Below are positions 5,045 to 63,521 of a stretch of DNA of 64,000 bases, piece by piece. Made by a program: the position numbers and the translations under genes. Within the stretch, counting starts at the first letter, position 1. The number at the start of each line of letters is the position of its first letter. Origin of the DNA: Chthonomonadales bacterium (GTDB lineage Bacteria; Armatimonadota; Chthonomonadetes; Chthonomonadales; Chthonomonadaceae); NCBI GenBank assembly GCA_038231295.1, contig JBBRLP010000009.1, positions 1 through 64,000 of the forward strand, written 5' to 3'. The notes under the pieces are model-generated. The model saw nothing but the letters and a program-made list of their open reading frames with translations. It was not told the origin of the DNA and made no database searches.

Positions 5045-6724
5045 CTACAGTTTCGTCACCTCTCCGCTGACCCGGGCGAGAGCCTTCTTGCCCTCATCCT
5101 CCAGGCCGAAGACATTACTCTGAACGCCCTTTTTGATCTCCTCTAGTGCCGACATCGCCTCTGCTTTATTGCCCTGCTTCAAGCAGCACTCCACCAGAGC
5201 GACACGAGCAAAGAAGTAACTGGGGTTTCCATCTATAGCTTCACGGAAGTTCTTTTCCGCTTCGGCATACTGCCCCGCATTAAACTTATCGTTGCCCTCG
5301 TTGAAGTAGTCTTCAGCCGACATCCCAGCACCTGGGTCTGCCCGCTCCGCTAGGCCAAAACCTCTGCGGATTAGCTGGCGCATAGTGATGGCGAGATCGT
5401 GCGGAGACATCCCGAACATTTGAGCGGTATGGGTATCTACCGTAACCACCTGTCCCTTGGGTGTCATCAGAACAAACTCTTTCTTTCTGGCTTCTATGCG
5501 AATTGTTTCCAGATCGGCCAGATTCTGCTGCTTCAGAGCCTTACTGATGAGAGTTGCACGTTCGAGCGGATTGTAGGGTGTGCGGGGTATGCCGAACATA
5601 CGCACCAGTATCTTACCCCCGATTTTGACCACGCCAATCGTTTCCGATACCCCAGGCATCGTCCCTATTTCCCCGGTTATTTTGACACCCGATTTCATTC
5701 CAGTCAGCGGAGAAGCCGGAACGGGCAGCAACTGCGCCAATGTACTCGATGTAGACGTAGCAGCGACCATCGTATCCTGGAAAAGTTGGCTATCCTTGCC
5801 TATCCCATTCACTTTATTTGTGAGAGTGACCCCATACTCGGCCAGCGGTCGTTCGTTCGACTCCAACCCTATCAAGGCATAGCGCAGGAAACTTTTCCTG
5901 GCGGTCTTGTCTCCCGTACCCGTTTCGTTATTGGCGATGACGACCGACTGCGCGGTGATTCCGGAGCCGCTATCGTTGAGAATACCGAGAAGGCCGCTGT
6001 AGTTCGGAACACGATCCTGATCTTCGTGGCTAAGATGTCCCCCAAGCAACAGGACTCTATTCGCGGCTTTGCAGCCAGCGAGCTGGAAATCCGTATCGGT
6101 CAGTTCACTGTCATCACCGGTCAGAACCTTGACTTTGGCTTTGTCATCTCCCTGACCGGAACCTGCCCGTACATAGGCGGAGACAACTACCGCGACGAAC
6201 TGGTTGCTCTGAGCCATCTTGCTGATGGCATTACGCGCTGTCTTGAAATTCAGCGCCGTAGGTTCACCGTGCAAGGGAACGGTAGCGTCTTTGGTATAAA
6301 ACCGGCTCTTGAACAGCCCCAGATCGCTCGTTCGTGGCTGATTCTCCAGCAGCTTTTCTGTGTACTCGGTATAGGGAGTCGGCTCGTAATTTTTCGCGCC
6401 ACCCTCAAATCCAGCAGGCAGGCTTTTCGTTCTTTCAAAGTTTTCGACATCCGCGCCTCTTGCGAGTAACACGATATGATCTGCGGGAACTTTGAGATTT
6501 CCAGTGAACTGCCTGAACGCACGGATAGCATCCCATTGGATGGTGCGGTCATTGGCCGCTCGAGTGGTATCCGGGGCATTCGCACCAAGAATAATCACCC
6601 ATCCGGGAGACTTATCATTGGCCGGAGTCGCACGGGGTGGATTCGGTTGCTGCGCCAGAATGCCACTCGCACTAAGAGTGGTCAGAGCGCACACGATTGA
6701 GAGTATTAAGGGACTGCGTCGCAT
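5045..6724 (-). CDS. Secreted hypothetical protein with C-terminal TPR-like repeats
   Basis: 559-aa ORF with an N-terminal signal peptide (MRRSPLILSIVCALTTLSASGILA). The C-terminal ~120 aa has a TPR-like pattern (AEDYFNEGNDKFNAGQYAEAEKNFREAIDGNPSYFFARVALVECCLKQGNKAEA). The function of the central region is not recognised. Confidence 0.5.
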   Translation of the reverse strand: MRRSPLILSIVCALTTLSASGILAQQPNPPRATPANDKSPGWVIILGANAPDTTRAANDRTIQWDAIRAFRQFTGNLKVPADHIVLLARGADVENFERTKSLPAGFEGGAKNYEPTPYTEYTEKLLENQPRTSDLGLFKSRFYTKDATVPLHGEPTALNFKTARNAISKMAQSNQFVAVVVSAYVRAGSGQGDDKAKVKVLTGDDSELTDTDFQLAGCKAANRVLLLGGHLSHEDQDRVPNYSGLLGILNDSGSGITAQSVVIANNETGTGDKTARKSFLRYALIGLESNERPLAEYGVTLTNKVNGIGKDSQLFQDTMVAATSTSSTLAQLLPVPASPLTGMKSGVKITGEIGTMPGVSETIGVVKIGGKILVRMFGIPRTPYNPLERATLISKALKQQNLADLETIRIEARKKEFVLMTPKGQVVTVDTHTAQMFGMSPHDLAITMRQLIRRGFGLAERADPGAGMSAEDYFNEGNDKFNAGQYAEAEKNFREAIDGNPSYFFARVALVECCLKQGNKAEAMSALEEIKKGVQSNVFGLEDEGKKALARVSGEVTKL

Positions 6725-6875
6725 CAGCTTCCTCCATCTTTATCACCAGAGTGAACAGGCTTCCTGCCTGCTCTGTTCTTGAGTAGTCAGACTAAATCGT
6801 CTACAGGATTGAAGTTCAGTAAGAACTTGTCCTATTAGGTTGTATTTAGTTTACATCCTAAGTAGCGCACTGTCA

Positions 6876-6891
6876 AGTGATCTTTTTCACA
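6876..6891 (-). promoter_or_regulatory. CRP/FNR-family-like binding site (TGTGA-N6-TCACT) upstream of the 559-aa secreted protein gene
   Basis: The minus strand reads TGTGAAAAAGATCACT, a 9/10 match to TGTGA-N6-TCACA. It lies ~160 bp upstream of the start codon at 6724. It is part of a 19-mer (caagtgatctttttcacac) identical to one upstream of pilB. It is embedded in a 12-bp perfect inverted repeat (6876-6887 / 6900-6911). Confidence 0.4.
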
Positions 6892-6916
6892 CTGCCTGAA
6901 AAAAGATCACTCGAAT

Positions 6917-11017: not shown

Positions 11018-11042
11018 ATTTCCTACCTCCTGCCCGGTTGGG

Positions 11043-11070
11043 CACTGCCTGAAATATACATCAGGCAGTG
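11043..11070. other. Intercistronic perfect hairpin between the outer-membrane-protein and protease genes
   Basis: cactgcctga (11043-11052) and tcaggcagtg (11061-11070) form a 10-bp perfect inverted repeat with an 8-nt AT loop. It sits ~30 bp upstream of the RBS of the 6917..11017 gene. It shares the 12-mer cactgcctgaaa with the hairpin at 6890-6904. Confidence 0.5.
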
Positions 11071-11092
11071 TTCACCCCTTCGGGATTACTCA

Positions 11093-12514
11093 CTAGAACG
11101 TAGCGCGTCCAGTCAGAGTATAAGTGAGACTCCCACTGGATGTTTGGAGTTCAACGGTCGGTTCGAAACTGTAGCGTACCCCTTTAGTGACTTTAGAAAC
11201 GCGTCCCGTTGGCTTATACGTCTTTGTCACCGGGTCGAATTTTCTTTCTTCGATACCGGAGTCATCCGGATCGTAAAGCTGCTGGAACGCCAGTCCGAAG
11301 GAAAAAACGCTGTCTGCATTGGTGTAGATGGTGGCAGCATTCTCGTTGGTATGAAAGCCGAACCGTACCGGGACACTGTAGCGATTCGCATGTTTTGTAT
11401 CCCAGAAAACCGGTACGCTTTTCGGCGTGTATTCAAAGCCTAGATGGAAGTTGGTGACGGCCCGCCGCCGATCCAACTGCGAACTAATGCCGTTTACCAA
11501 TTTACGATTGGCCGCTGAAAACACCTGTAGTTCGCCGCTGACAATGTATTGACCATGCAGTTTCGGCAGAATATAGGCCGTGCCGAACGTGAATCTTTCC
11601 GGCGTCTCCGTGTTGAATGTCGTCGGAGTGGTACTCGTGGCATCCAGGCCGGAAAGTGTTGTCGCAGAACGGTACGAGAGACCGAAGGACCACTTATCCG
11701 AGGGATCATAGGCCAGTCCGGCACTTACTCCTACCCCATGACCACGTGCGCTGATGGGCGTATCGTTAATGCTGACCGTTTGGCCTGGCGACACCTGTGT
11801 GCCGACGGTGGATTCGCTGAACTCCTGATCCACAAAGAATATGCCGATTCCTACTCCCAGCTGACCTGGCAGTTTTGCCTTTTTGGGCAGGAACCTTTTC
11901 ATTATACCCTCAAACTGTTTCTTATCGAACAGTTTTCCATAGGCTACGGTAAGGTAGGAGTTTCGCACCAGCAGGTCGGTCGTTCCTGTCTGTGTCACGG
12001 TAATATTGTTTCCTGCTATACCAGACCCATCTGGAACATCCGTTTTCGAGCGATTAAAACCTTCGCGCAGTTTCAGATACCCGCCAAGAGTATAACTGAC
12101 ACCGACAAATTGATGTTCCTTCTCTGCCCCGACCGGGAAGACAAGACTTGCAAAGCCGAGCTGCGGTTTTCCGGCGCGGTTTCCCGGTTTGAACACGTCC
12201 GGCGTATTGGTCTTCGTTGTGAGCGTGGCATCCGCTTCGAATACGGAGCGGTAGTCTATCATGAATTCACGGTTGCTGAGAAAGCCGAGGCGACCGGGAT
12301 TCCAGAACGTAGCGCTGGCGTCGTTGGCAATGGCAGAGAAGGCGTTCCCCATTGCAACGGATCGGGAACCAACGCCGAGTGTCTGGAGTTGGTCCGAGCC
12401 GAGACGACGACCATAAAGAGCGCTGATTCCCTGAGCGTGTGTTACAGACGAACACGCTGCCGTAACGAGAGCGAGACCAGTCCATGAGACACACCAGGAG
12501 CGAGAGTATTTCAT
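11093..12514 (-). CDS. Outer-membrane beta-barrel protein of the FadL/TodX/PorV-like family
   Basis: 473-aa ORF with a signal peptide (GLALVTAACSSVTHAQG). The N-terminal motif VAMGNAFSAIANDASATFWNPGRLGFL matches the G-x-G-x-A-F-x-A-x-A-D-D-A-S-A-x-F-x-N-P-A-G-L signature of the FadL/TodX/PorV families. The rest has alternating beta-strand-like composition with aromatic residues and a C-terminal F. RBS AAAGGAGA lies upstream. Confidence 0.6.
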   Translation of the reverse strand: MKYSRSWCVSWTGLALVTAACSSVTHAQGISALYGRRLGSDQLQTLGVGSRSVAMGNAFSAIANDASATFWNPGRLGFLSNREFMIDYRSVFEADATLTTKTNTPDVFKPGNRAGKPQLGFASLVFPVGAEKEHQFVGVSYTLGGYLKLREGFNRSKTDVPDGSGIAGNNITVTQTGTTDLLVRNSYLTVAYGKLFDKKQFEGIMKRFLPKKAKLPGQLGVGIGIFFVDQEFSESTVGTQVSPGQTVSINDTPISARGHGVGVSAGLAYDPSDKWSFGLSYRSATTLSGLDATSTTPTTFNTETPERFTFGTAYILPKLHGQYIVSGELQVFSAANRKLVNGISSQLDRRRAVTNFHLGFEYTPKSVPVFWDTKHANRYSVPVRFGFHTNENAATIYTNADSVFSFGLAFQQLYDPDDSGIEERKFDPVTKTYKPTGRVSKVTKGVRYSFEPTVELQTSSGSLTYTLTGRATF

Positions 12515-21705: not shown

Positions 21706-21721
21706 TGTGATGAAACGCACA
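21706..21721. promoter_or_regulatory. Weaker CRP-like site in the divergent adhesin/rapZ intergenic region
   Basis: TGTGATGAAACGCACA is an 8/10 match to TGTGA-N6-TCACA. It lies in the ~660-bp lower-GC divergent region between the adhesin start (21388) and the rapZ start (22048). Confidence 0.2.
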
Positions 21722-22047
21722 ATCCTGTCATGCAGGCGAGCCACTAAAACATATCATAACGACGGCCTGCCTGTCAAGTGCTTTGGTGAGGAATCATGCT
21801 TTTTTTCAAAATTCGTGATTTCTTCCCTGAAGTTCGGACTTCAAGTCGTCATATCACCTTCCTGTAAATCAATTCGTTAAGAACGTCTTTGCTATTTCAT
21901 TTCGCATACCATCTCCGCAGTGCGCCTTCGTGTTAATAGGATGCGTCCCGGATTTGTCCAAAATCATGCCTCGCAGAGAGACTATGCTACAATAACCAGG
22001 TTACTCGCGCACACTCTGTCCCGGCGCACCGAGGTGAGGAGATTTTC

Positions 22048-29493: not shown

Positions 29494-32400
29494 TTACCGC
29501 TGATTGCTGGCCGTCGGGTAGAGCTGCGGCGCGATGGTCTCGAAGTAGAGATCGGTCGAACCGGCGCGGGTGCTGCTCCAGAAGATCCAGACCTTGTCCA
29601 GGAACGGGTCTTTGAAGGCGGAGACCTGCCCTTCGCTCACCGCCGAGTCGGTGGGCAGCGCCACCTCCGGCGTCGTCTGATCGCCCTGCTGCGCCGAGGT
29701 GCTGATCTCGTCGCCCCAGGCCACCTGATACTTCAGGCTTCCGGAGTTACCCGTGTTCCCGGAGGTCGGGTCGTAGTAGGTGTAGCTCACGGTGATGGAA
29801 CTGTTCTCGTCCGCCTCGGTGAAGTATATCCGTCCGCGCACCCAGTCTATCTCGTAGGGGCCGACGTTTCCGCCCACCGTGACCGGCGTCATCTGCTGCG
29901 TCCCATTGCCCTGCACCGCACCCAGTTTGACCGGGAACGGCAGCTTGACCATGAGCCGCATCGCCTTGTAGTAGATCGTGGATTTGGCGACACCGCTCGG
30001 ATCGTTCTTGCGGTAGAAAACCCACATCCGGTCTAAGGTCGGCGTTCCGCCGAACACCACCTGCGGCGACACCAACTGCGCCCTGGGATTCAGGCCCCGG
30101 TCGAAGAGGACGACCGGACTGGTGTTGTTACCCGAGGACGTAATGGCGGCGGTCGGACGCAGGGACGGCGCGTTCGGCAGGTTGCCGAAGTTGGCGAGAG
30201 ACGTCCGGTCTATGTTCGAGTCGTCCCGCGACGTATTCAGCCGCATTATGAACGGAATGTAGCTTACCTGGATGCGGTCGGCCAGCGCCGGAGCCACCTG
30301 CGGGAAGCGGATGGTGCCGGAGCGCGAATCTACCGTGATCTGTCCTCCCAGGGCGGAGTCGAAGTAGATAAGGCCCGATGCCTGGTCGTAGCGGCCACGC
30401 TGCGGCAGGTTCGGCATCCCCGGCTGCGCGTTGATGAGAACCGGATTGTTTGCCAGTCCGCCCTGGATCAGGAAGATTTTGATCTGGCTGCCGGGGTCTG
30501 TCGTCGGGTCTTGCAGCAGGCCCTCCGGCCCGGTGCCGAGTTCCCAGGCCGCGTCGCGTCCCTGGTAGGTGTTGCTGCTGCCCAGGCGCGTCAGGACTTC
30601 GCCGACGACCGGCTTGATCGGCAGGATGGTCAGAGTGCCTACCGGCGGGTCGCCTGCCTTCGCCGGGGCAACCCGGTTGATCTTATAGCGGCAGAGCAGG
30701 GTCTCGACCGTCTGACGGCCTTTGAGAACGCCCGTATACACCACGTCAATCACGTCCAGCACCTGGTTCGACCCGTAGGGGTCGGGAATATGGCGATAGA
30801 CGGGCGCGGGATCGCTCTGCCATACCAGCGCTCCCGGCATCGGTAGTTTGAGGTCGCCGAGCGGGTTGCCAGCAGCGTCCAGCAGCCACTTGCTGGTTCC
30901 GTCGAACGGCGTGTTCAGCGCCGTGCTGCCAAGCGCGTTATAGTAGATCGAAGCGTTCGACTGGTTGCCTGCGTGCCAGAAGACATACAGGAACTTCTGC
31001 GCGGGCGCTCCATTGGCGGCAGGCAGTTTGACAAGCAGTGGTCGGGGCGCGAGTTTGGTCAGGCCCGGATCGTTCGGCATGGCGTTGATGTTGCCGGTCG
31101 GGACGCCCGGCGCCGCGCCGCCATTCAGACTTGTCCAGGAGACACGCGAGTCACGCGCTTGCTGCTGTCCACCGGCGGAGGCGACGAGTTTGTCCACCTG
31201 TCCCTGCCAGAAGAGATAGGCTTCGTTGTCGTTGGGGTTCGGGGAGCCGTAGCCGCCGGAGAAGTCCACTGAGGACGCTACCGCCGGATGCGACAGCCGC
31301 ATCGTGTCCACATTCGCCGGTCCCGCGAGGAAGGGCGAGGCGCCCGAAGTCGAGGGGAACAGGCTGGTGATGTTCGCATTGGTATACAACTGCACGACCG
31401 GCACCGACCACCAACTGGAGATTTTGGGCAGTGGCTGACCGTTGGCGAAATCGAAGTCGCCAATGACGATGCCGGTGCCGCCGACCGCGCTGTAGGGAGC
31501 CGAGACATTGCTGTACGCGAGCTGGTAGGGAGCATACGCCTTGAGCAGGCCGGTCGTCGGGTCTATGTAGCCATCCACACCCTGTCGGCGGTTGGTAGAC
31601 CAGTACATGAACAGGTTGCGGTTGAAGACGTTCCCGCCCGTTCCGGGGGCCATGAAGACCGCCGGGAAGGTGTCTGAACCGGGAGGCGTCGGCAGTTCGG
31701 GATGCAACGGGTCGGCCCAGGAGCCAGGCACGTCGAGCATGGGCAGGTCACCGGAAGTGACGCCCCGGCTCAGTTTCGCTTCTCGCACGGTTGCCTTCAG
31801 GATGAACGTCGGGTCGGTGTGCGCCTCGGAGGGCGTTCCGGCCTGTGTGATGTTCAGGACACCGTCATGGCTGGCCGGGAAGTTTGAAGTCGTTCCGGCG
31901 ACGGTCGGATAGTTGCTCAGCCACTCCTGCCATTGCAGGGGCGTGTTGTCCTCATAGGTGTAGATGGGAGCCGAGTAGGTTCCGACCGGAGTTCCGAGCG
32001 GAATCGCCACGCCGATGCGCGGCCGCTGGAAATCCGCCGCGAACAGGGTTCCGGGTACGACAGTGGCGCTGTAGGGCTTATCCGGGATCGTTGAGGAGCG
32101 GCCCTGCGTGTCGCCGACGTGCGGCTTGCCGATGGTCGGCTGCGGCTGTATCTGGTCCTTCCAGCCGAAGATGCCGTTCGCCAGATCGTCTACCGTCGGA
32201 AGCAAGGCTCCGAACTGATTGGCGTTGTCAATATCGGCCTGCACGACGAACGGGTTGTTCAGCGGCCACAGCGCCCGCTCCGAGAACAGGGAGGTCGTCG
32301 GATTGCTGGAACTGCTGATATGGTCGTAGGACGAGATGACGCCGATGTTTCCGACTCCGGGCTGGCCCGAAACGTTCTTGAACGGCAGGGCGAACAGCGG

Positions 32401-35400
32401 CGCGATGGACTGGTTGTTCACCTGGTCGCTGTACATCTTCACTGTCGTCGCGAACGAGCCGTTTTCGACGCCGACCGTCGGGTCGGTGAAGGGCGAGAGA
32501 GCGCGTCCGGTGATCTGCGCCCGGTTCTGGCCGAGCAGTTTCGCCACGCGCACATCCACCAGGTTGACGTTGCTCTCATTGTAGACGGTGAAGGGCCGGA
32601 AGAACTCGCCCTGAAGCGTCGGGTCGTCCCAGATGAACGGCCCCGGCAGGCCCGGTGACATATCCGGTGCGAACGGCACCTGGAAGGAGCGCGGCTGGCT
32701 GTTATTGGTCAGCGGCGTGTAGCCCGTGCCGTGCGGCAGTTTGCCCACGTCCAGCGTCGTCTCCGCGACCCGCATCTTGACGCCCGGTGGCACCGAGACG
32801 CCGACTTCGAGAGCGCGGTACGCCTCGTTCACCCCGGCATTGCTGCCGTAGCGAGCCGCCTGGAAGAAGTTGGTCGGATTGTAGCCGCCTGCCGGTCGGG
32901 GCAGGTCGGGCGGAATGACCCGGATGACCACCGCCGAGACGTAGCCTGCGGCGGGATAGGAGAGCGCGTTGCCCAGCGGCGTCGGCTGCCCGTTCGAGGT
33001 CTGGAGCGGCCCCAGAACCGTCTTATCGTAGTTCTGCGTCACGGTCGGATCGGACGGGTTGCCGCGATTGACCCCCGACATATCCAGGAAGGAGGAGCCG
33101 AACGTCACGCCGTTGAAGGTACGGAGACCGTAGTTGATGTTGGCGGGCTGGAAGCGCGGCACATTGACCGCCATCGTAAACGGCGTCGCCACCAACTGAC
33201 GGGTTCCCGCGATGGCGTCGCTGCCGTTGAACTGGTAGTTCGGCAGTTTCAGTTGAACCGAGCCGCCAATCGCATCCTCATCGCCCTGCGTCTTGCGGAC
33301 GGTGAATGCGGAGGTCGGAATACTCGGGTAGTCCAGGGTATCCTGGGCATCCGTCGGCAGTTGTTCCCAGGGCAGTGGGTTCATGACGGCGGAGCCGGTC
33401 GCGGTCGGGTTCTGGGACGGCGACCAGCCGTGCCAGCCGAGTTTGCGCGTCAGCACCTGAATCTGGAGCGGCTTGCGGCGCAGTCCCCACATATTACTGC
33501 GGTCTACGATATAGAACGCATCCTGTCGGTTGCCTGCGTTGTCCACGCCCCCATACGTCGAGGTGGAACCGTCCGGCACCATCGGCAGCGGCGCGAAGAG
33601 CGACTTGACCGCAGAGTTCGTCGTCACCACGCCCGGAATGACCTGTCGGTTGCCGTTGCCAAGCAGTTCCCCGACGTTGGCGGGTTTGATGGTCAGCGCA
33701 TTCTGCACACTGCCATAGAGACCGACAACGTTCAGGTTGCCCTTGCCCGTCATGTCCGAGTTCAGCGGAATAGTGAGGTCCGGGTTCAGCGGCGAAATGC
33801 TGCGGGTCGTGACCGCGATCGGGTTCGTGATCGAGTAGGCACGTGCGATGCCGAGGATATTCGTCTGGGAGGGCGGCGTCTGGAACGCCGCAATCAGTCC
33901 GGTATAGTCGTGCTGGCCGATGGCATAGGTGGGCGTTCCCGCCGACTGATTGGGGAACGGGGTTGTCGTCATCGTCGCCGGGTCGTAACCCTCAAGGTCC
34001 TGATAGATCTCGGCATGGGCCGTAATACGGTAGCCGCGCACTCCCGGCAGGAAGTTGGCGATGGTGCCGTTGTCCGTCGGCGCTCCCGGATAGATCGGGA
34101 AGGCATGGGAGAAGACCCAGGGATAGACGTTCTTGTCGCGTCCCTGCAGAAGCTGCGCCGCCGGGTTGCCCATGTTCGGGTCTATGCCGAATATCTGGAG
34201 CGTATCGTGTTCGCCGTTGTTGATGGCGACGTCGTCGGGCCAGAGTTCGCCTGCGGCGGCGTGCAGCGCTTTTGTCTGCGGGAAGATGTCCGCCGCATAG
34301 CTGGTCGAAGCGCCGCCGGGCTGCGAGATGGTAAAGGTGACATGGATGCGCGGTGGGCCGGTGCCATGCAGGGGCTTGGTCTTGTCGTCCGTCGGCTGCG
34401 CGTGGTAGACGCCTGCCGCTGAGACATAGAGCATATCCCCCCAGTCGGAACCGTATTCGGTATTGCCGGCAATCAGGTTGCCGGGGTCGGGCAGAACGGA
34501 CTTGGTATACCCACCGCCTGCGTTCTTGCGGTTGGGCGTATTGGTTCCCGCAACGATCTTGTTGTAGCTGTCCTGGCGATAGATGTCGAAGACGCGCAGG
34601 TCAATACTGAGGTTGCCCGCGCCGAGTGCGATCTCCGCCGGTTCGCCGCCGTTGTTCGGTCCCAGCGTATTGCCCAGACCGTTCAGCCCGACTCCGACAC
34701 CGTAGGCGCGGAGCTGGCCGCCCTCGTCGCCTTCGACGATCATACCGGAAGCGAGAGACGCCGACGCGATCCGGTTCGCATTGACCTCATGGTGATGCCA
34801 TATCTCAGAAAGCAGGGTATCCGTGCCAAACGTGCCGGGCTGTGTCGTATCGGGCCGTGCGGTAAGGCCCCAGATTGCGCCATCGTCGTCGGCGAAGACA
34901 AGAGCGGGCTGCGGGTTGATGGTATCTACCGATTCGCCCGGCAGGCCGGTCAGCAGGGTCGCGATGGGGCTGGCGCTGGTGTTCGCGCCGCTGAGAGTGA
35001 TGCCGGAAGCGATGAGTTTACCATTGAAGGCGTTCAGGCCGATGAGTATGCTGTTGCCTTCGAGGACGTAGCAGAAGTCATTGGTGACCGCCGGACTGGA
35101 CGGAATGACGGGTGCAGCGTTCAGCGTCGCCTGACTCATCAGCACGGGAGCCGTGCCATTGAAGCCCGGATCTAGCGCGACAGTCGCGTCGTTCGCGGGG
35201 TCAGCATTCGGTGGGGTCGGCGTATTCGGGAAGACCCATTTCAGCGTATTGGTGGTCGGCGCGGTCGGACTGACGACTGCCGGAACCTCCTGCACCGCGT
35301 AGACGCGGCCTTCACAGGTGAAATAGAGGTAGGGGAAACCCGCACCGGCAGGCTGGAAGATCGCCGCCGTGCTGATCGCACCGCCAAGACCGGTATTGCC

Positions 35401-37764
35401 CGTTTCAGGGGGAGCAGGATAGACCCAGTTGCGCCGCTCCTGCCAGACCGGTTTGAGGGTGTTGGCATTGTAACTAAGGAGAACGTCATTCGCCGCGTTC
35501 AGAGCGTACATGTGTCCATCCCCCGCTCCGATAAAGAACGGCACCTTTTTGGGGTCGCCGCCCGGCGCGGGATAGGTGGGGTCATAAGTAGGCGAAGCCA
35601 GAATCGTTCCGAGGCTCGGATCGTCTTTGATCAGATTGGTCGCCGTGCCGTTCGGGAATTTCGCGTAGTAGGCGTCCGCTCCGAAGTGTGGATAGGTCCA
35701 GATGCGCTGCGTGGTTCCCAGCGTCGTGAAGACGGTCGGGTCGTAGTCGCCGCGCCCGCCTGCGTCGAAGGCGTAGACACGTCCGTTCTGGTTGCCCACG
35801 ATGAGTATCTGCGCTCCGGTCAGGTTGTCCGGGTCGTCAATGATGATCGGAGAACCGAGCGAGCCGCCGAAAGCGGGCAGGCTTGTGTCTTTGCGGACGA
35901 TGAAATCTCCCGCCTGGGCCGGATTTGCAACGATCTCTCCGTCCCAGTGGAAGAAGGGATCCGCGGCATCCACCCCCCAGGTGGGCGGAAACAGCGTTGT
36001 GAAACTGGCAGGGCGCTTGTAGTTCGGATCGTGCGCCTGGGCGGGAACTTTGTTGGCCGCCAGTTCCGCCGCCGTCAGCGGGACATAGGACGGATAGGTC
36101 CAGTAGTTCTGCGTGGTGTGCAGGGGGAGGTTACCCGCCGCGTCGAAGGCGTAGATGTGTCCTAGCGTCGCCGTGCTGTTGGTCGTGATGAAGTAGACCA
36201 TCGTGCGGGTCACCCCGTCACGACAGCGCACATTGGCGAGCAGGGGCGAGGCGGCGCTGGTGGCATCGGTGCTGGAAGCGTCTGCAATACCGACATAGCG
36301 CCAGCGTACCCGATCTATCGAGCGGGCGAGTCCATCCGGGTCTCCGCCGAGTGTATTCAAGTTCTGATTGTTGACACAGTAGAAGACGGGCGCGGTGATA
36401 GTCGCGGTCGGGTCCGGAATGAGCGGATTGGTCGCGCTGGCGGGCAGCGTCGGGTCGGTGGGAATGCGCGGTGTGGGATCGGGAACAGACTCCTCACGGG
36501 CAAAGAAGAACAGGGGCTGCGCGTCGGTAATCGGATTGCCCTGCAAGTCATTCAGAAGCTTGTTGGTTCCCACGACCGGGCCAAGAACCCGCCCGTTCGG
36601 CGAGATATTGCCGAGGGCCGCGTTCGCTCCCGACGATTTGGCGACGAACCGCACTGCGTCTGCTGTAATGACCGGAAGTGAACCGCCGAAGCCGGGATCG
36701 TTGATATCGTCCGGCGTGAGAGTATACAGCGTGACGGTTATCTGGTCGCGGGGATCGCCGGAAAAGGGGAAGACAGCCGGGCTGGAGCCGCCACCCTGAA
36801 TATGCTGCCAGCCGGGCGCTCCAGGGTCAATTTCATAGATACGACTGGTCGTCGGGTTGTCAATGTTGGCCTTGACCGGGTTGCCGTTAGCGTCAATCGT
36901 TCGGAACCAACTGACCCGCACAAACGCACGGAGTACGCTGGCATGTCCGGTAGTTACGCCGCCTTTAGAGATTTTCGTGAAGTCGCCGGGCATATAGACA
37001 TCCACGCCGTAGTTCCCGACCACCAGGTTGGTCGCTCCCGAAGAGACAACTGAGGTCGGATGGATGTCATTGATAAGTACGTTCTGTACCGCAGCATAGA
37101 CATTGGTCGCCGCGTTCGGCAGGGCCGCCAGTTCGGTGCGAGTGGCGGCACGCTGCTGGCCCGTAACAGCATCAATAACCAGAAAATCGTTGTGCGTGGC
37201 GAGGACGTAGGCGTAGTCTTTGGTATAGGTCTGGTTCGGGTCCGTCGAAAACGAGAAGCCCCCTGTCGTCGAGCGGTAGTCGTTTACGGGAACCGGAGGC
37301 CCCGGCGCGACCGCAGGCAGGTTCCAGCCACCGTTCAGGTAGCTGTGCGCGATCACCTGTGGGTCGTTGCCGGTCTGCATCGCATAACCGGGCATGACGC
37401 GCACGATGTTGTTTTGCGTGTCTTTGAAGTTTTGTGGGTCGGTCGCGTTGGCGTTGTCTACTATAATGGTGGGCAGCGTTGTCACGCCGGTGGTGGAGAT
37501 GTCCAGGGTACGCGGGAAGACCCAGCGCTGCACACCGTGACCGGGATTGTTGGCAACATTGTTGATATTGTTGCTGCCCGGACGCGTGGGAATCCCCGAA
37601 GAGGTCGCGGCGTTGAAAGTCAGGTTGCCTCGATCCAGCAGCCAGTCCACGTCGTCGAAGACAGGAACCTGCGCCTGCGCCGCTCCCGCCGCCAGAGCGA
37701 ACAGGAGGGCGATCAACGCGCTCAGACCGGATTTGCGGAGGAGAAGCGTGCTTCTATACCTCAT
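29494..37764 (-). CDS. Giant secreted protein with PQQ-like beta-propeller repeats (candidate PilY1-like pilus-associated adhesin)
   Basis: The long ORF ends at 37809 (2,771 aa). The start was chosen at the ATG at 37764 (MRYRSTLLL...), which has a strong RBS AGAGGAAA 7 nt upstream. It gives a canonical signal peptide (LSALIALLFALAAGAAQA). Multiple G-[RH]-[VM]-YA-[FL]-[DN]-A motifs (GRVYAFDAGG, GHMYALNAAN, GRVYAVQE, HIYAFDAAGN) are typical of PQQ/BamB-like beta-propeller blades. It is co-directional with and 39 bp downstream of another giant beta-propeller gene, at the distal end of a type IV pilus gene array. Confidence 0.7.
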   Translation of the reverse strand: MRYRSTLLLRKSGLSALIALLFALAAGAAQAQVPVFDDVDWLLDRGNLTFNAATSSGIPTRPGSNNINNVANNPGHGVQRWVFPRTLDISTTGVTTLPTIIVDNANATDPQNFKDTQNNIVRVMPGYAMQTGNDPQVIAHSYLNGGWNLPAVAPGPPVPVNDYRSTTGGFSFSTDPNQTYTKDYAYVLATHNDFLVIDAVTGQQRAATRTELAALPNAATNVYAAVQNVLINDIHPTSVVSSGATNLVVGNYGVDVYMPGDFTKISKGGVTTGHASVLRAFVRVSWFRTIDANGNPVKANIDNPTTSRIYEIDPGAPGWQHIQGGGSSPAVFPFSGDPRDQITVTLYTLTPDDINDPGFGGSLPVITADAVRFVAKSSGANAALGNISPNGRVLGPVVGTNKLLNDLQGNPITDAQPLFFFAREESVPDPTPRIPTDPTLPASATNPLIPDPTATITAPVFYCVNNQNLNTLGGDPDGLARSIDRVRWRYVGIADASSTDATSAASPLLANVRCRDGVTRTMVYFITTNSTATLGHIYAFDAAGNLPLHTTQNYWTYPSYVPLTAAELAANKVPAQAHDPNYKRPASFTTLFPPTWGVDAADPFFHWDGEIVANPAQAGDFIVRKDTSLPAFGGSLGSPIIIDDPDNLTGAQILIVGNQNGRVYAFDAGGRGDYDPTVFTTLGTTQRIWTYPHFGADAYYAKFPNGTATNLIKDDPSLGTILASPTYDPTYPAPGGDPKKVPFFIGAGDGHMYALNAANDVLLSYNANTLKPVWQERRNWVYPAPPETGNTGLGGAISTAAIFQPAGAGFPYLYFTCEGRVYAVQEVPAVVSPTAPTTNTLKWVFPNTPTPPNADPANDATVALDPGFNGTAPVLMSQATLNAAPVIPSSPAVTNDFCYVLEGNSILIGLNAFNGKLIASGITLSGANTSASPIATLLTGLPGESVDTINPQPALVFADDDGAIWGLTARPDTTQPGTFGTDTLLSEIWHHHEVNANRIASASLASGMIVEGDEGGQLRAYGVGVGLNGLGNTLGPNNGGEPAEIALGAGNLSIDLRVFDIYRQDSYNKIVAGTNTPNRKNAGGGYTKSVLPDPGNLIAGNTEYGSDWGDMLYVSAAGVYHAQPTDDKTKPLHGTGPPRIHVTFTISQPGGASTSYAADIFPQTKALHAAAGELWPDDVAINNGEHDTLQIFGIDPNMGNPAAQLLQGRDKNVYPWVFSHAFPIYPGAPTDNGTIANFLPGVRGYRITAHAEIYQDLEGYDPATMTTTPFPNQSAGTPTYAIGQHDYTGLIAAFQTPPSQTNILGIARAYSITNPIAVTTRSISPLNPDLTIPLNSDMTGKGNLNVVGLYGSVQNALTIKPANVGELLGNGNRQVIPGVVTTNSAVKSLFAPLPMVPDGSTSTYGGVDNAGNRQDAFYIVDRSNMWGLRRKPLQIQVLTRKLGWHGWSPSQNPTATGSAVMNPLPWEQLPTDAQDTLDYPSIPTSAFTVRKTQGDEDAIGGSVQLKLPNYQFNGSDAIAGTRQLVATPFTMAVNVPRFQPANINYGLRTFNGVTFGSSFLDMSGVNRGNPSDPTVTQNYDKTVLGPLQTSNGQPTPLGNALSYPAAGYVSAVVIRVIPPDLPRPAGGYNPTNFFQAARYGSNAGVNEAYRALEVGVSVPPGVKMRVAETTLDVGKLPHGTGYTPLTNNSQPRSFQVPFAPDMSPGLPGPFIWDDPTLQGEFFRPFTVYNESNVNLVDVRVAKLLGQNRAQITGRALSPFTDPTVGVENGSFATTVKMYSDQVNNQSIAPLFALPFKNVSGQPGVGNIGVISSYDHISSSSNPTTSLFSERALWPLNNPFVVQADIDNANQFGALLPTVDDLANGIFGWKDQIQPQPTIGKPHVGDTQGRSSTIPDKPYSATVVPGTLFAADFQRPRIGVAIPLGTPVGTYSAPIYTYEDNTPLQWQEWLSNYPTVAGTTSNFPASHDGVLNITQAGTPSEAHTDPTFILKATVREAKLSRGVTSGDLPMLDVPGSWADPLHPELPTPPGSDTFPAVFMAPGTGGNVFNRNLFMYWSTNRRQGVDGYIDPTTGLLKAYAPYQLAYSNVSAPYSAVGGTGIVIGDFDFANGQPLPKISSWWSVPVVQLYTNANITSLFPSTSGASPFLAGPANVDTMRLSHPAVASSVDFSGGYGSPNPNDNEAYLFWQGQVDKLVASAGGQQQARDSRVSWTSLNGGAAPGVPTGNINAMPNDPGLTKLAPRPLLVKLPAANGAPAQKFLYVFWHAGNQSNASIYYNALGSTALNTPFDGTSKWLLDAAGNPLGDLKLPMPGALVWQSDPAPVYRHIPDPYGSNQVLDVIDVVYTGVLKGRQTVETLLCRYKINRVAPAKAGDPPVGTLTILPIKPVVGEVLTRLGSSNTYQGRDAAWELGTGPEGLLQDPTTDPGSQIKIFLIQGGLANNPVLINAQPGMPNLPQRGRYDQASGLIYFDSALGGQITVDSRSGTIRFPQVAPALADRIQVSYIPFIMRLNTSRDDSNIDRTSLANFGNLPNAPSLRPTAAITSSGNNTSPVVLFDRGLNPRAQLVSPQVVFGGTPTLDRMWVFYRKNDPSGVAKSTIYYKAMRLMVKLPFPVKLGAVQGNGTQQMTPVTVGGNVGPYEIDWVRGRIYFTEADENSSITVSYTYYDPTSGNTGNSGSLKYQVAWGDEISTSAQQGDQTTPEVALPTDSAVSEGQVSAFKDPFLDKVWIFWSSTRAGSTDLYFETIAPQLYPTASNQR

Positions 37765-37847
37765 GGAATTTCCTCTTATCTTCATCTCATTAAGAGCGGC
37801 GGAATGCATTCCGCCGCTCCGAGCCTATAGCGGTCAATTTTTGTCTC

Positions 37848-56227: not shown

Positions 56228-56438
56228 GGTCTTTTTCTCCCGATAAACGCCGTCCGTCCTGCCACATCCTTTGCAGAATGGGATAGCCCACGGCATAGCA
56301 GCTCTGATTAGTACGTAGTAGGCAAGTGTACAATTTAGTCCGGTGGACGCAGGATGGCAAAGGGTTGACACTCCTCGCTACGCGCCTCCGGCGGATCGTC
56401 CTTCGGACGAAGGGAATGCCCGTCGGGAATGACATCGG

Positions 56439-56540
56439 AATGAATTGCGGGTTTGCCCATCCGTTTGCCCTTCGGAATGAATTCCGAAGGGCAAACACCG
56501 GACGCAACGGCAAAATGATGGGCAAACCCGCAATTCATTC
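56439..56540. repeat. Nested double-palindrome (cruciform/RNA double-hairpin element) between pilB and pilT
   Basis: Outer 24-bp perfect inverted repeat: gaatgaattgcgggtttgcccatc at 56439-56462 and gatgggcaaacccgcaattcattc at 56517-56540. It encloses an inner 34-nt near-perfect palindrome at 56463-56496 (gtttgcccttcggaatgaattccgaagggcaaac). All arms are built from two motifs (ggaatgaatt, gtttgccc) in alternating orientation. This is why ORFs 56326..56616(+) and 56335..56634(-) translate to the same peptides. Confidence 0.7.
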
Positions 56541-56757: not shown

Positions 56758-58533
56758 TTAGTAACCGGCGGTGAAGACGACGCGCATGACCTCTTCGGGC
56801 GTGGTCTGCTGCGCGAGAACTTTCAGCAGTCCGTCTTCCTTGAGTTCCTTCATGCCGTTGGCTTTGGCGGCCTCTTTCAGGTCACCGAGCGGGGCGCGGC
56901 GCACCACCATTTCGGCCATCTCCGCGTTCATTCGCATTAGTTCGTAGAAACCGATACGGCCCTTGTAGCCCGTATGGCGGCACATCTCGCAGCCACGTCC
57001 ACGCGCAAGGGTCACCAGCTCACCCGGGTCTTCCGGCTTGAAGCCGAAGCGGCGCAGATCGGAACCCGGAACCTCATAGGTCTCCTTGCAGTTCGTACAG
57101 ATTTTGCGTCCGAGGCGCTGGGCGAGAATACCGATGATCGTCGCCGAGATAAGGAACGGCTCGATCCCCATGTCAATAAGGCGGATCGTGGCCGAAGGCG
57201 CGTCGTTGGTATGGAGCGTCGAAAGCACAAGGTGGCCTGTCAGCGAGGATTCAATGGCGATTTCCGCCGTTTCCAGGTCGCGCATCTCTCCGACCATAAT
57301 GATGTCCGGGTCCTGACGGAGGAAGGAGCGCAGGGCGCCGGCGAAATTGAGACCGGCCTTCTTGTTCACCTGCACCTGCGTGATACCGGTCAACTGGTAC
57401 TCACAGGGGTCTTCGACTGTCAGGATGTTGACGCCGACGGTGTTGAGGCGGTTAAGCACCGAGTACTGCGTGGTCGTCTTGCCGGAACCCGTTGGACCGG
57501 TAGAGAGAAGCATTCCGTTCGGCTGGTTGGAAAGTTCTTCCAGTTGGGCCTGCATCTCGGGGGTAAAGCCGAGTTTGTTCAGCCCGATCATGATGCTGCT
57601 CTTGTCGAGAATTCGCATGACGATCTTTTCACCGAACAGGTTGGGCAGACAGGAGACGCGGAGGTCGTAGTCCTTGTTCTCGTAGCGGATGGGGATACGA
57701 CCGTCCTGCGGAACGCGCCGTTCGGCGATGTTCATTTCCGAGAGAATCTTATAGCGGGCCGTCAGCGGCATCTGAAGGTATTTCGGCATCGGCATGGCTT
57801 CATGCAGAACGCCGTCAATGCGATACCGGACGCGCATGTTGCGGGTTCCCGGCTCGATATGGATGTCCGAGGCACGCTCTTTGATCGCCTGCTGAATAAT
57901 CGTGTTGGCGAGGCGAACGATAGGCGCGTCGTCGGAGCCGTCCACACTGGCCTTTTCGTCGTCCGCGTCAATGTCCGCGCTCTTGTCCGCGCCGTAGCGG
58001 GCGATGGCTTCCTTCATGTCGGTCGCCATGCTGCCGCTGCCGAGTTCCATCCCGTCTTTGTTCGGGTTCATTCCGGTCTTGGCGCTGATCTCTCCCCCAG
58101 TGGAGCCGCCGTAGAGACGGGCAATCGCATCGGTAATGTGATCGGGAACGGCTAGAACTGCGCGTACCGTACAGCGCGAGACCAGGCGCAGGTCGTCGGC
58201 AGCCGTAATGTCGTTGGAGTTTGCCATCGCCACATAGAGGATATTGCCGTCTTTTTTGACCGGCAGCACATTGTGGCGTTTCGCGACGTGTTCGGGAACG
58301 ACATTCAGCGCACTCTGATCGGGCTTGTAGACGGTGAGGTCCACGAAGGGCTGACCGAGTTCCGCCGCCTTCGCTTCATAGACGTGCGTGGGATTGAGGC
58401 CGAGGTCTACCAGGATTTTCGCGAGGTCGCCATGCGTAGACTGCTGGGCCTTCTTCGCATCCTCTATCTCCTGTGTAGAGGCGTACCCCTTCTCCACCAT
58501 ATAGTCGCCCAGGCTTTTTCGTGCCATTACCAT
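56758..58533 (-). CDS. pilB: Type IV pilus assembly ATPase PilB (GspE family)
   Basis: 591 aa. The N-terminal GspE_N/MshEN-like domain precedes the ATPase core (LLSTGPTGSGKTTT, DPCEY, IIMVGEMRDLETA, STLHTNDAPS). A C-terminal tetracysteine zinc motif is present (CTNCKETY...CEMCRHTGYKGR). Confidence 0.9.
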   Translation of the reverse strand: MVMARKSLGDYMVEKGYASTQEIEDAKKAQQSTHGDLAKILVDLGLNPTHVYEAKAAELGQPFVDLTVYKPDQSALNVVPEHVAKRHNVLPVKKDGNILYVAMANSNDITAADDLRLVSRCTVRAVLAVPDHITDAIARLYGGSTGGEISAKTGMNPNKDGMELGSGSMATDMKEAIARYGADKSADIDADDEKASVDGSDDAPIVRLANTIIQQAIKERASDIHIEPGTRNMRVRYRIDGVLHEAMPMPKYLQMPLTARYKILSEMNIAERRVPQDGRIPIRYENKDYDLRVSCLPNLFGEKIVMRILDKSSIMIGLNKLGFTPEMQAQLEELSNQPNGMLLSTGPTGSGKTTTQYSVLNRLNTVGVNILTVEDPCEYQLTGITQVQVNKKAGLNFAGALRSFLRQDPDIIMVGEMRDLETAEIAIESSLTGHLVLSTLHTNDAPSATIRLIDMGIEPFLISATIIGILAQRLGRKICTNCKETYEVPGSDLRRFGFKPEDPGELVTLARGRGCEMCRHTGYKGRIGFYELMRMNAEMAEMVVRRAPLGDLKEAAKANGMKELKEDGLLKVLAQQTTPEEVMRVVFTAGY

Positions 58534-58655
58534 GTGAGTGTCTCCACCTATGCTCTCGATTAGCGAGTTCGAGCCGTTCTGCCGGCGTGTTCACGTTCTC
58601 GTGGATTATCGCTCGTTTGAACGCCCGATTATAACACAGTGTCGTTATAGTTGCA

Positions 58656-58671
58656 AGTGATCTTTTTCACA
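58656..58671 (-). promoter_or_regulatory. CRP/FNR-family-like binding site upstream of pilB
   Basis: The minus strand reads TGTGAAAAAGATCACT, ~125-140 bp upstream of the pilB start codon. It sits within a 19-mer (caagtgatctttttcacac, 58654-58672) identical to 6874-6892. Confidence 0.4.
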
Positions 58672-58754
58672 CCCGACCGGGATTTTCGGTCACCCTATCG
58701 CATGAAGAGACCTGCTCCCCCAGAATTGGGGGCCGGGGGGCGGCTAATATCCCA

Positions 58755-61588: not shown

Positions 61589-61607
61589 TTCCGGACAACT
61601 CTGGTTT

Positions 61608-61883
61608 GGACCTCATCCCCCAACCCCCTTCTCCCGGGCGGTCGCAAGCTCCCTGGGAGAAGGGGGCTTTCAATCTCCCCACATCTTCATTACCCAAAAC
61701 GCTCGAAGGGTGGCCTGGGTTGGCCCTCATCCCCACTCCTTTCCCAAAAAGCCTGAGGGAGGACAATTTGCCTGTCTCTCTCGTGGGAGCGAACACGGTA
61801 GGAAATTAGTCAGCCTGACCGCCCCCTTCTCCCAGGGAGCCTAAGCGACCGCCCGGGAGAACGGGGGTTGGGGGATGAGGTCC
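61608..61883. mobile_element. MITE-like element: 276 bp flanked by ~60-bp near-perfect terminal inverted repeats
   Basis: IR-L at 61608-61667 reads ggacctcatcccccaacccccttctcccgggcggtcgcaagctccctgggagaagggggc. IR-R at 61821-61883 is its reverse complement with about 4 mismatches or indels. Each IR is itself an internal hairpin (ccccttctccc ... gggagaagggg). There is no ORF inside. It is inserted between the mltG start and the glycoside hydrolase gene. The 12-mer cccccttctccc also occurs at window positions 10-21. Confidence 0.4.
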
Positions 61884-62039
61884 GACCCCAACCCATCCTC
61901 CGAACGCTCAGAGAAGAACGAGAAAATGACGGAGGGGAGGAGGGCCAGCAGGCAGGGGGGAAGGGCCTGCGTCACGAACTATGGAGGTAAGAATCGCTAC
62001 GAAAATCTCTGGCGGAATAAACAGCAGGGAGTCAACGAG

Positions 62040-63521
62040 ATGAGGAAGAGACACTGGGGTCGCCTTGCGGCGCAATTCGTGCTGGCGGGCATTGGGGTTG
62101 CGGGAACGGCGGCGCGAGCCGAGGCGCCCGCGCCTCCCTATCCGTTCGCAATGTGTTCCAATGGCAACATCGGAACGAACCCGGAGTATGCGGCGAAGAT
62201 GCTGGATGCCGGGGCCAGAATGTGCCGGGCGGATGTGACGTTTGGTGATGTGCGCCCGAAGGAGGGGAACGACCCGAACGGCTGGAATTGGCAGCGCATC
62301 AACGCGCTGGTCGGGGTGCGGAAGGCGCATCCCACTCTGGATTTTCTGGTGCTGCTCGGCTACGGCGCGAAGTGGGCAGAGGATGCCCGCTATGCCGATG
62401 TCAAGAGCGGTGATTCGGCGGGCGGGCAACGCGGTATCGAGATCATGCCCGCCTGGAGTCCGGAAAACCTCTACGGACACTATGTCTACGAGACGGTTCG
62501 CCGCTACAAAGGCAGTTTTCACGCCTGGGAGAGCTGGAACGAGCCGGACTTGCCCGGTCACTCCTTTTTCAAGGGCGGCGGCAGGGAGTTCTTCTCCTAC
62601 CAGAAAGCCTGTTATCTGGCGGCGAAAAAGGCCGACCCGAACTGTACGGTCGTCTTTGCGGGTCTCTGCTTCGCGAATGTCGAGGGCTACCTGACCACGC
62701 ACAAACTCAGCCCGCCGACGCCCTATCCACCGCAGGAGTGCTTTTTCGAGGACTATCTGAAAGCCTGTGTTCAGGACCCCGATGCCCGTAAGAACCATTT
62801 CTATTTCGATGTCATGAACCAGCATACCTACAGCCGCGCCACCGACCTGTACGACTACACGATGGTGGACCGCAAACTGATGCGCGACTATCTGGGGGTG
62901 GAGAAGCCGATCTGGATCACGGAGATGGGTTTCGTGGACGCGAAGGGGCTGTTCGGAGGGGATGCGGACGACTACTGCGACTACCTGCTCCAGTCGTTCG
63001 CGTGGGGCAAACTGGCGAACGTGCAGCGATTCTTTCACTTCCAACTCGACAACTCCAACGGGCATGGCCTCTACTCCGGAATGCTTGGCCCCCCGAAACA
63101 GCCTCTGGCAACTTACCGCGATGTGCTGACAAAAGAGTTCGCCAATGCCCGCTTGCTTTCTCAGCAGCGTGGGAACGCAGGCGTCGGCTTCCTGCAGGGC
63201 CACTCTCCCTTCAAGCCCGACTGGAAGGCTGGCTACGACCTGTTTGCCTTCCAGAGCGGGTCGCGCCGCCTCTGGATGGCTTTCGCCGATACGGAGAAGG
63301 CCGTCGCCATCACGATTCCGGCCCGCCGCGCTCAGGCTATTCTGGTAGATCGGCACAACGTCCGCACACCTCTCGTCGCGCAGAACGGCGTCTATGCCCT
63401 CACCCTGCCCGGAGCCACCAACCGCACAGGCTGGCCGACCGCAGACGACCCGAAAGCAAAAGCGCTTGGCGAACCGGAGCATCTGGTCGGCGGCGCGACC
63501 TATGTGCTAATCGAGGAGTGA
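62040..63521 (+). CDS. Secreted clan GH-A (TIM-barrel) glycoside hydrolase-like protein
   Basis: The ORF is open from 61875. The start was chosen at the ATG at 62040 (MRKRHWGRLAAQFVLAGIGVAGTAARA, a signal peptide). The upstream part overlaps the MITE-like inverted repeat. A WESWNEPD motif (NEP catalytic acid/base of clan GH-A) is present. Confidence 0.55.
   Translation: MRKRHWGRLAAQFVLAGIGVAGTAARAEAPAPPYPFAMCSNGNIGTNPEYAAKMLDAGARMCRADVTFGDVRPKEGNDPNGWNWQRINALVGVRKAHPTLDFLVLLGYGAKWAEDARYADVKSGDSAGGQRGIEIMPAWSPENLYGHYVYETVRRYKGSFHAWESWNEPDLPGHSFFKGGGREFFSYQKACYLAAKKADPNCTVVFAGLCFANVEGYLTTHKLSPPTPYPPQECFFEDYLKACVQDPDARKNHFYFDVMNQHTYSRATDLYDYTMVDRKLMRDYLGVEKPIWITEMGFVDAKGLFGGDADDYCDYLLQSFAWGKLANVQRFFHFQLDNSNGHGLYSGMLGPPKQPLATYRDVLTKEFANARLLSQQRGNAGVGFLQGHSPFKPDWKAGYDLFAFQSGSRRLWMAFADTEKAVAITIPARRAQAILVDRHNVRTPLVAQNGVYALTLPGATNRTGWPTADDPKAKALGEPEHLVGGATYVLIEE

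Follow-up and report, generated by a model that had tools for sequence, protein, structure and literature searches.

Comparison with described systems

CRP, Vfr, Clp, GlxR and SyCRP1 bind the box TGTGA-N6-TCACA, and of these Vfr and SyCRP1 control type IV pili; the class II position of CRP/FNR-type activators is at about −41.5. In the window (the whole 64-kb stretch of Armatimonadota DNA analysed here) a 19-mer, CAAGTGATCTTTTTCACAC, lies ahead of the pilus gene pilB and ahead of a gene for a secreted TPR protein, and contains a box of this type when read on the coding strand. Class II CRP promoters (E. coli galP1 and melR; centre −41.5) share with it the inverted TGTGA/TCAC half-sites (9/10 here), the 6-bp spacer and a box that abuts or overlaps the −35, at a predicted centre of −42.5 or −41.5; the right half of the box, AGATCAC, also agrees with the extended CRP consensus. 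However, class II CRP promoters typically have a poor −35, whereas here the predicted −35 and −10 are both near-consensus, and the Armatimonadota box is a candidate site, with a start that is only predicted. By analogy, the arrangement resembles Vfr of Pseudomonas aeruginosa and SyCRP1 of Synechocystis, with a CRP-type box at type IV pilus genes and at surface or secreted protein genes. Those regulons comprise many sites with variable spacers, conserved across related species, whereas the window has two sites of identical sequence, and six distinct relatives lack the pilB one.

Two other kinds of promoter element are also close. In both promoters an A5 tract is spaced from the −35 as in the proximal subsite of UP elements (AAAAAARNR, −46 to −38), and relatives are A-rich there too, but UP elements are not conserved base for base between promoters, while here identity extends into GTGTG and GATCAC, which are not UP-like. 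Reused or ‘mobile’ promoter segments likewise place an identical upstream segment before two unrelated genes, here including one lineage-specific orphan; reported examples are much longer, whereas the common segment here stops at 19 bp, leaving out the spacer, the −10 and all but the TTG of the −35. No CRP regulon or promoter motif for Armatimonadota was found in the literature searched, and genome papers on the phylum describe many ECF sigma factors and few regulators and are silent on CRP and on promoter motifs.

The shared 19-mer and the predicted promoters

The features that define the two sites are as follows.

56758..58533, minus strand: pilB, type IV pilus assembly ATPase (Pfam MshEN and T2SSE; homologues named PilB)
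58628..58656, minus strand: predicted pilB promoter TTGCAA-17-TATAAT from a promoter scan (−35 at 58656..58651, −10 at 58633..58628)
58654..58672, minus strand: 19-mer copy at the pilB promoter, exact match (coding strand GTGTGAAAAAGATCAC plus TTG)
58656..58671, minus strand: CRP-type box TGTGA-AAAAGA-TCACT, 9/10, centre at 58663.5, about −42.5 from the predicted start
5045..6724, minus strand: 559-aa gene, lineage-specific, with C-terminal TPR repeats and a signal-peptide-like N-terminus
6848..6876, minus strand: predicted TPR-gene promoter TTGACA-17-TAAACT, recovered twice by the promoter scan (−35 at 6876..6871, −10 at 6853..6848)
6874..6892, minus strand: 19-mer copy at the TPR-gene promoter (559-aa secreted protein), exact match

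The first-pass annotation had reported that the 19-mer occurs exactly twice in the 64-kb window, ahead of pilB and of the 559-aa TPR gene. A mismatch-tolerant search bore this out: exactly two copies are present (6874–6892 and 58654–58672 in plus-strand coordinates), and no third was found in the window on either strand, even allowing three mismatches. The copies lie 121–139 nt (pilB) and 150–168 nt (TPR gene) from the respective ATG. Read on the coding (minus) strand, the 19-mer is GTGTGAAAAAGATCACTTG, and in both copies this contains TGTGA-AAAAGA-TCACT, the 9/10 match to TGTGA-N6-TCACA that had been proposed; scored by eye against the FNR box TTGAT-N4-ATCAA, the same sequence reaches only 7/10. 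GTGA-N6-TCAC has only two sites in the 64 kb, both intergenic, and these are the two 19-mer copies. Four sites in the window are within one mismatch of TGTGA-N6-TCACA (1.19 expected), three of them intergenic, and the 19-mer is the window's only exact repeat of at least 17 nt that links two distant non-coding places.

The 19-mer at 6874–6892 and 58654–58672 never recurred in shuffles (0 recurrences). Under a fairer null, in which any 19-mer may be repeated somewhere in 64 kb, a repeat arose in 18 of 200 composition-matched block shuffles, and the bare repeat, with position ignored, is only marginally surprising. Both copies, though, are in intergenic DNA, which makes up 6.6% of the window, both are oriented as the downstream gene, and both stand in identical register to a predicted −35/−10 pair; because of this combination of position, orientation and common promoter register the 19-mer is non-random. 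A shared promoter-proximal element is real. Identity between the copies breaks off sharply at both edges of the 19-mer, a pattern that would fit selection on a defined site better than a decaying duplication.

The TTG that ends each copy supplies the first three −35 bases of a sigma-70-like promoter that scores 10/12 and has a 17-bp spacer, and at pilB a TG precedes the −10 (extended −10). Promoter-like sites scoring 10/12 number just three in the window's intergenic DNA, at pilB, the TPR gene and an adhesin gene. The element proper is thus 16 bp, GTGTGAAAAAGATCAC, at about −51 to −36 relative to the predicted starts. Because the box abuts the predicted −35 in both copies, the centre of the palindrome falls at about −42.5, or at −41.5 if the start is one base closer, which is among the supportive outcomes that the first-pass annotation had named for the position of the site. 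For neither gene is it obvious that so near-consensus a core promoter would need an activator.

The pilB promoter in related genomes

The earlier assignment of pilB was correct: the MshEN and T2SSE protein is encoded by the first gene of a pilB-pilT-pilC-pilD-pilin cluster, in which pilD encodes the prepilin peptidase and the pilin-like proteins downstream carry N_methyl and DUF1559 domains. PilB homologues carry the names Chthonomonadaceae or Chthonomonas, that of C. calidirosea being 72% identical, and these names and the pilin-like domains place the window in a genome (MAG) of an uncultured Chthonomonadaceae member of the Armatimonadota. The aroE-pilB intergenic region was compared with loci L012, L093, L094/L100, L098/L099, L101 and L102, which represent six distinct relatives (PilB 86–91%). 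In all six, [G/C]ATC[G/A]C-TTGCA[A/T]-17-TATAAT-CGGGCG is kept together with a leader of ~90 nt; in the four relatives scored, 23–26 of 29 core promoter positions are identical to the window, and L101 and L102 have the same TTGCA[A/T]-17-TATAAT core. DNA further upstream is not conserved (5–9/29). The conserved core and leader beside unconserved upstream DNA support the pilB promoter call.

At the position of the box, the relatives read as follows.

L012: GTTTTCTACGCATCGC
L093: GTTTTGAACACATCGC
L094: CAGACAAACGCATCGC
L098: CGCATGCAACGATCAC
L101: CAACCAACGACATCGC
L102: CGCGTGCAGCGATCAC

The TGTGA half-site is present at the pilB promoter of none of the six distinct relatives (0/6), only the promoter-proximal [G/C]ATC[G/A]C being kept, so that the box is not conserved upstream of these pilB orthologues; GATCACTTG is found exactly in L098 and L102. 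By this comparison the 19-mer is made up of nine ancestral promoter-proximal bases, GATCACTTG, and ten lineage-specific bases, GTGTGAAAAA, and the CRP-type box at pilB looks like a lineage-specific gain, in which a TGTGA half arose six bases from an older GATCAC/CATCGC.

No copy of the 19-mer was found in ~170 kb of relatives' loci, nor any other CRP-type box in the non-coding DNA of the relatives' pil loci over the same ~170 kb; their sole one-mismatch match (L012, 21675) starts one base after a called gene start. In GTDB representative genomes the 18-mer has 11 matches, in unrelated taxa only and at about the number given by a rough chance estimate. On the dispersed-repeat check raised at first pass, the 19-mer is therefore no dispersed repeat in the window, the relatives' loci or the GTDB representatives. 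A metagenome scan with PilB yielded few close relatives (best 78% identity), with promoters too diverged for alignment.

The TPR gene and its inverted repeat

The N-terminus of the 559-aa protein, MRRSPLILSIVCALTTLSASGILAQQ, is signal-peptide-like by reading of the sequence. Among 5.8 billion proteins it has one homologue (80% identity), and the 1366-aa neighbour has none, nor any Pfam match; neither protein has a match in the relatives' loci. Because both genes are near-orphans, the TPR promoter has no comparative footprint of the kind available at pilB.

The surrounding 5–12.5 kb stretch is a lineage-specific island. At 5045–12514 the G+C content is lower (0.51–0.55 in 2-kb blocks across 6–12 kb vs ~0.60–0.63 elsewhere), and the stretch encodes the TPR protein, the 1366-aa protein and a FadL/OMP-like barrel and adjoins a gene for a 2928-aa Ig-repeat adhesin-like protein. 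At 6931–6955 (minus strand), within the last 40 nt of the 1366-aa ORF, there is a terminator-like ACGG-TTTG-CCGT stem followed by CTTTTTT, and the true 3′ end or terminator of the 1366-aa gene may differ from the mechanical ORF call.

The 19-mer copy at the TPR promoter is part of an inverted repeat, with one further feature:

6900..6914, plus strand: distal inverted arm AAAAAGATCACTCGA, pairing with 6873–6887 (15-nt arms, 12 nt between)

The arms are 93% complementary, and the corresponding RNA hairpin has a predicted energy of −19.8 kcal/mol (z = −4.3). The distal arm corresponds to AAAAAGATCACT plus one extra A, with CCTGA in place of TGTGA, and read as a second box it would be cCTGA-N7-TCACT, centred at about −64. 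No inverted partner was found at the pilB copy.

The adhesin region

A weaker TGTGA-N6-GCACA-type box had also been noted at first pass, and it is present:

21706..21721, no strand assigned: weaker box TGTGATGAAACGCACA, where the adhesin gene and rapZ diverge

Relative to the best predicted adhesin promoter the box is downstream, at about +21 to +36, and the rapZ start is ~330 nt away; because of this placement it is unfit for an activator role, and judged from the sequence it is probably outside the two-site system. The proposed ‘adhesin/protease cassette’ stands in its adhesin part, a 2928-aa Ig-repeat adhesin-like protein, but not in its protease part, which is a 1366-aa ORF without a Pfam match, and co-regulation of the whole adhesin cassette is unsupported, the 21706–21721 box being misplaced relative to the adhesin promoter.

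The promoter predicted for the 2928-aa adhesin-like gene is TTGACA-18-TATGTT, with TG before the −10 (21777..21748, minus strand). It is preceded by ...CCAAAGCAC, with an A7 tract further upstream, and the predicted 5′ UTR is unusually long (~350 nt).

Search for a regulator

No Crp/Fnr gene was found by Pfam in 27 of the 28 designated window ORFs (the 2771-aa ORF at 29494–37809 being left out), or by tblastn with E. coli CRP and FNR across the whole 64-kb window and the relatives' loci. A 244-aa ORF without a Pfam match (2452–3186), which adjoins a Band 7 gene, is read as a probable NfeD-like membrane protein and not as a regulator.

Interpretation of the shared box

The leading explanation, to which we give a probability of about 0.35, is a CRP-type class II operator at both promoters. 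A 16-bp operator (GTGTGAAAAAGATCAC) would be fused to the TTG of the −35 at two independent sigma-70-type promoters, one serving pilB and the other the lineage-specific secreted TPR gene. Its inverted half-sites, TGTGA and TCAC(T), six bases apart and centred ~42 bp upstream of the predicted start, would be bound by a dimeric helix-turn-helix regulator of the CRP/FNR family with CRP-type ‘GTGA’ specificity. The bound regulator would touch RNA polymerase as at class II promoters, so that the pilus assembly ATPase operon and the TPR protein would answer to one signal; because the core promoters are already near-consensus, the bound protein could equally be a brake. In this account we infer the transcription starts, the binding of a protein, the family of the regulator, the sign of regulation and the signal, be it cAMP or another.

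The CRP-type co-regulation suggested at first pass is borne out as far as a common 9/10 box at the predicted −35 goes, but the box is absent in six relatives and no Crp/Fnr gene was found in the window; on the evidence of the shared box, co-regulation of pilB and the TPR gene is plausible, whereas the cAMP dependence suggested by analogy is unsupported. Several features sit awkwardly with a CRP operator. The box does not recur in the 64-kb window with variable spacers, the two sites having identical N6 spacers and an identical flanking G; since the identical six-base spacer and flanking G exceed what a half-site model specifies, copying, or a longer or different motif, could explain them, and copying is as possible as selection for two sites with the same spacer. 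The extended −10 at pilB and the near-consensus cores are atypical of activator-dependent class II promoters, and the distal arm at the TPR promoter, which keeps the spacer and TCACT half (AAAAAGATCACT) and loses TGTGA with an N7 spacing, is unlike a second CRP site. The more specific proposal that the pilB promoter gained a CRP-type class II operator and that the same 16-bp operator was installed before the orphan TPR gene, a rewiring caught in the act, is doubtful, albeit worth stating; if true, it would tie a novel surface or secreted factor to pilus expression.

Should the box be real as an operator, it would open a first way into the control of transcription in Armatimonadota, of which few members have been cultured. 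It would tie the assembly of type IV pili to a secreted orphan TPR protein that is otherwise beyond characterisation, a hint that this protein acts together with the surface apparatus of pilus or adhesin. The box would also be a clean case of a regulator site gained in one lineage on existing promoter-proximal sequence and, if binding is true, would define the first operator and regulon seed for the phylum. The two-site prediction challenges no current concept, CRP-type control of pili being well established elsewhere, and the shared box is a plausible and fairly ordinary regulatory prediction from sequence.

The alternative that survives best, possible although on balance unlikely, takes the element as a promoter module and does without a dedicated regulator. 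In it, the RNA polymerase alpha C-terminal domain would contact the A-tract (about −46 to −42) as a proximal UP-element subsite, the pilB promoter would have had GATCAC natively as a promoter-proximal feature, and ~19 bp would have been copied from pilB to the TPR gene (a recent orphan acquisition) or in the reverse direction, leaving the palindrome incidental. In the right register, at −46 to −38, AAAAAGATC agrees at 7/9 positions with AAAAAARNR, the proximal UP consensus of E. coli, and relatives' pilB promoters are A-rich at −40 to −48 (L015, caaaaaaagtgc-TTGCAC; L094, CAGACAAACG; L101, CAACCAACGA). However, the lineage-specific half GTGTG is G/T-rich and not UP-like, yet exactly common to both promoters, and the distal part (GTGTG and upstream) is not A/T-rich at pilB. 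That GATCACTTG is ancestral at pilB, being exact in L098 and L102, agrees with a native module, and near-consensus cores need no activator; the new pilB bases nevertheless make a 9/10 CRP box precisely six bases from the older TCAC, and ‘CAC’ before the −35 is no general feature of strong promoter-like sites in the clade. Copying is favoured by the identical spacers and by the near-orphan TPR and 1366-aa genes within a lower-GC stretch, but a 19-bp patch with sharp edges and no flanking homology would be hard to move by recombination.

Rather unlikely, though still credible, is a regulator that belongs to some family other than CRP/FNR, such as a response regulator or an XRE- or LacI-like repressor, with the element as its operator. 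It would recognise AAAAAGATCACT(Y)GA, of which pilB has one unit and the TPR promoter an inverted pair with about two helical turns between the units, and would occlude or recruit polymerase at the −35. The window has three TGAAAAA(A)GATCACT copies, all intergenic, which agree in the spacer and TCACT side but not in TGTGA; at the TPR promoter the 15-nt arms show 93% complementarity, overlap with the −35 is a typical repressor position, and the Response_reg and GerE gene upstream of yceG-HAD-aroE-pilB in relatives is evidence of pil-linked regulators in the clade. Internal symmetry is lacking in the arm unit, though, and the single unit at pilB has no second half-site unless TGTGA serves, which leads back to the CRP-type palindrome; moreover, the linked response-regulator gene is missing at that position in the window, and this reading has no candidate protein.

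Considerably less probable still is a structural or repeat element: either a hairpin by which the 1366-aa gene's transcript is ended or stabilised, or a small dispersed repeat of REP/MITE-like type, part of which came to lie at pilB as well. The hairpin at the TPR copy (−19.8 kcal/mol, z = −4.3) begins a few bases past the 1366-aa stop codon, and other palindromic elements are present in the window (56438–56540 and 61603–61888). However, its stem is A/T-rich and is followed by UUGACAG with no U-run, the terminator scan made no call, the pilB copy has no inverted partner, there are no further copies in the window, the relatives' loci or related GTDB genomes, and the common 19-mer is only part of a hairpin arm, adjoining the −35; both a terminator and a dispersed-repeat reading of the 19-mer are unlikely. 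Coincidence, in which two unrelated promoters share 19 bases by chance, can be set aside almost entirely, for although some repeated 19-mer did arise in 18/200 composition-matched shuffles and any −35 is expected to have TTG, each copy lies in the 6.6% of the window that is intergenic, is oriented as its gene and keeps the same −35/−10 register, and 16 matched bases in register have a probability of ~4^−16 per promoter pair.

Other candidates were considered and rejected. For GTGAAA as part of an ECF-type promoter, the two copies share no suitably spaced −10. Inspection by eye gave no match to an IHF, DnaA or Fur box. Dam/GATC phase variation has nothing else in its favour, and with 285 GATC observed and 230 expected there is no depletion. 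An invertible promoter was dismissed since the arms are only 12 nt apart, and an extended −35 with ‘CAC’ as a clade-wide feature since other strong promoter-like sites do not have it.

Other features of the pil locus

The ~90-nt pilB leader, from the −10 to the ATG (58531–58627, minus strand, in the window), is strongly conserved across Chthonomonadaceae relatives (L012, 9912–10003; L093, 9912–10003; L094, 9911–10003; L098, 1868–1957; L101, 2911–3003; L102, 2913–3003). Conservation forms the blocks CGGGCG..GAACGAG, TGCAGGGCTGCCCGAACTCGCTAATCGAG and GGTGGAGACACTCACATG. In the long-range stem that RNAalifold predicts, three pairs (columns 8–10 with 50–52) show compensatory or one-sided changes, and an Rfam search that included the leader gave no match at the gathering threshold. 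The leader may be an undescribed leader RNA element controlling pilB.

A gene with Response_reg and GerE domains (NarL-type) lies directly upstream of yceG-HAD-aroE-pilB in six of seven distinct related loci (L012, 6379–7026; L094, 6367–7014; L099, 2520–3167; and the starts of L100, L101 and L102). L093 has a short 91-aa ORF at this position, and the L098 locus begins too close to judge. In the window the response-regulator position (61589–63521) is instead occupied by a plus-strand gene of 548 aa with a weak Glyco_hydro_cc match; the lineage with the CRP-like box has lost the linked response regulator from its pil locus. At 61603–61888 there is a ~285-bp element with imperfect terminal inverted repeats of ~70 nt (61603–61672 with 61816–61888), which takes up the intergenic DNA ahead of yceG and runs across the start called for the 548-aa ORF. 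This element is MITE-like in appearance and occupies the exact place of the relatives' response-regulator gene.

Between pilB and pilT, the window has a nested inverted repeat (56438–56540) whose outer arms of 35 nt are 91% complementary and enclose a perfect hairpin with 16-nt arms; it has no second copy in the window. A promoter-like site conserved upstream of pilT in relatives, TTGACA-17-AATACT, was not found in the window; in L012 and L093 it lies upstream of the second of two pilT-like genes.
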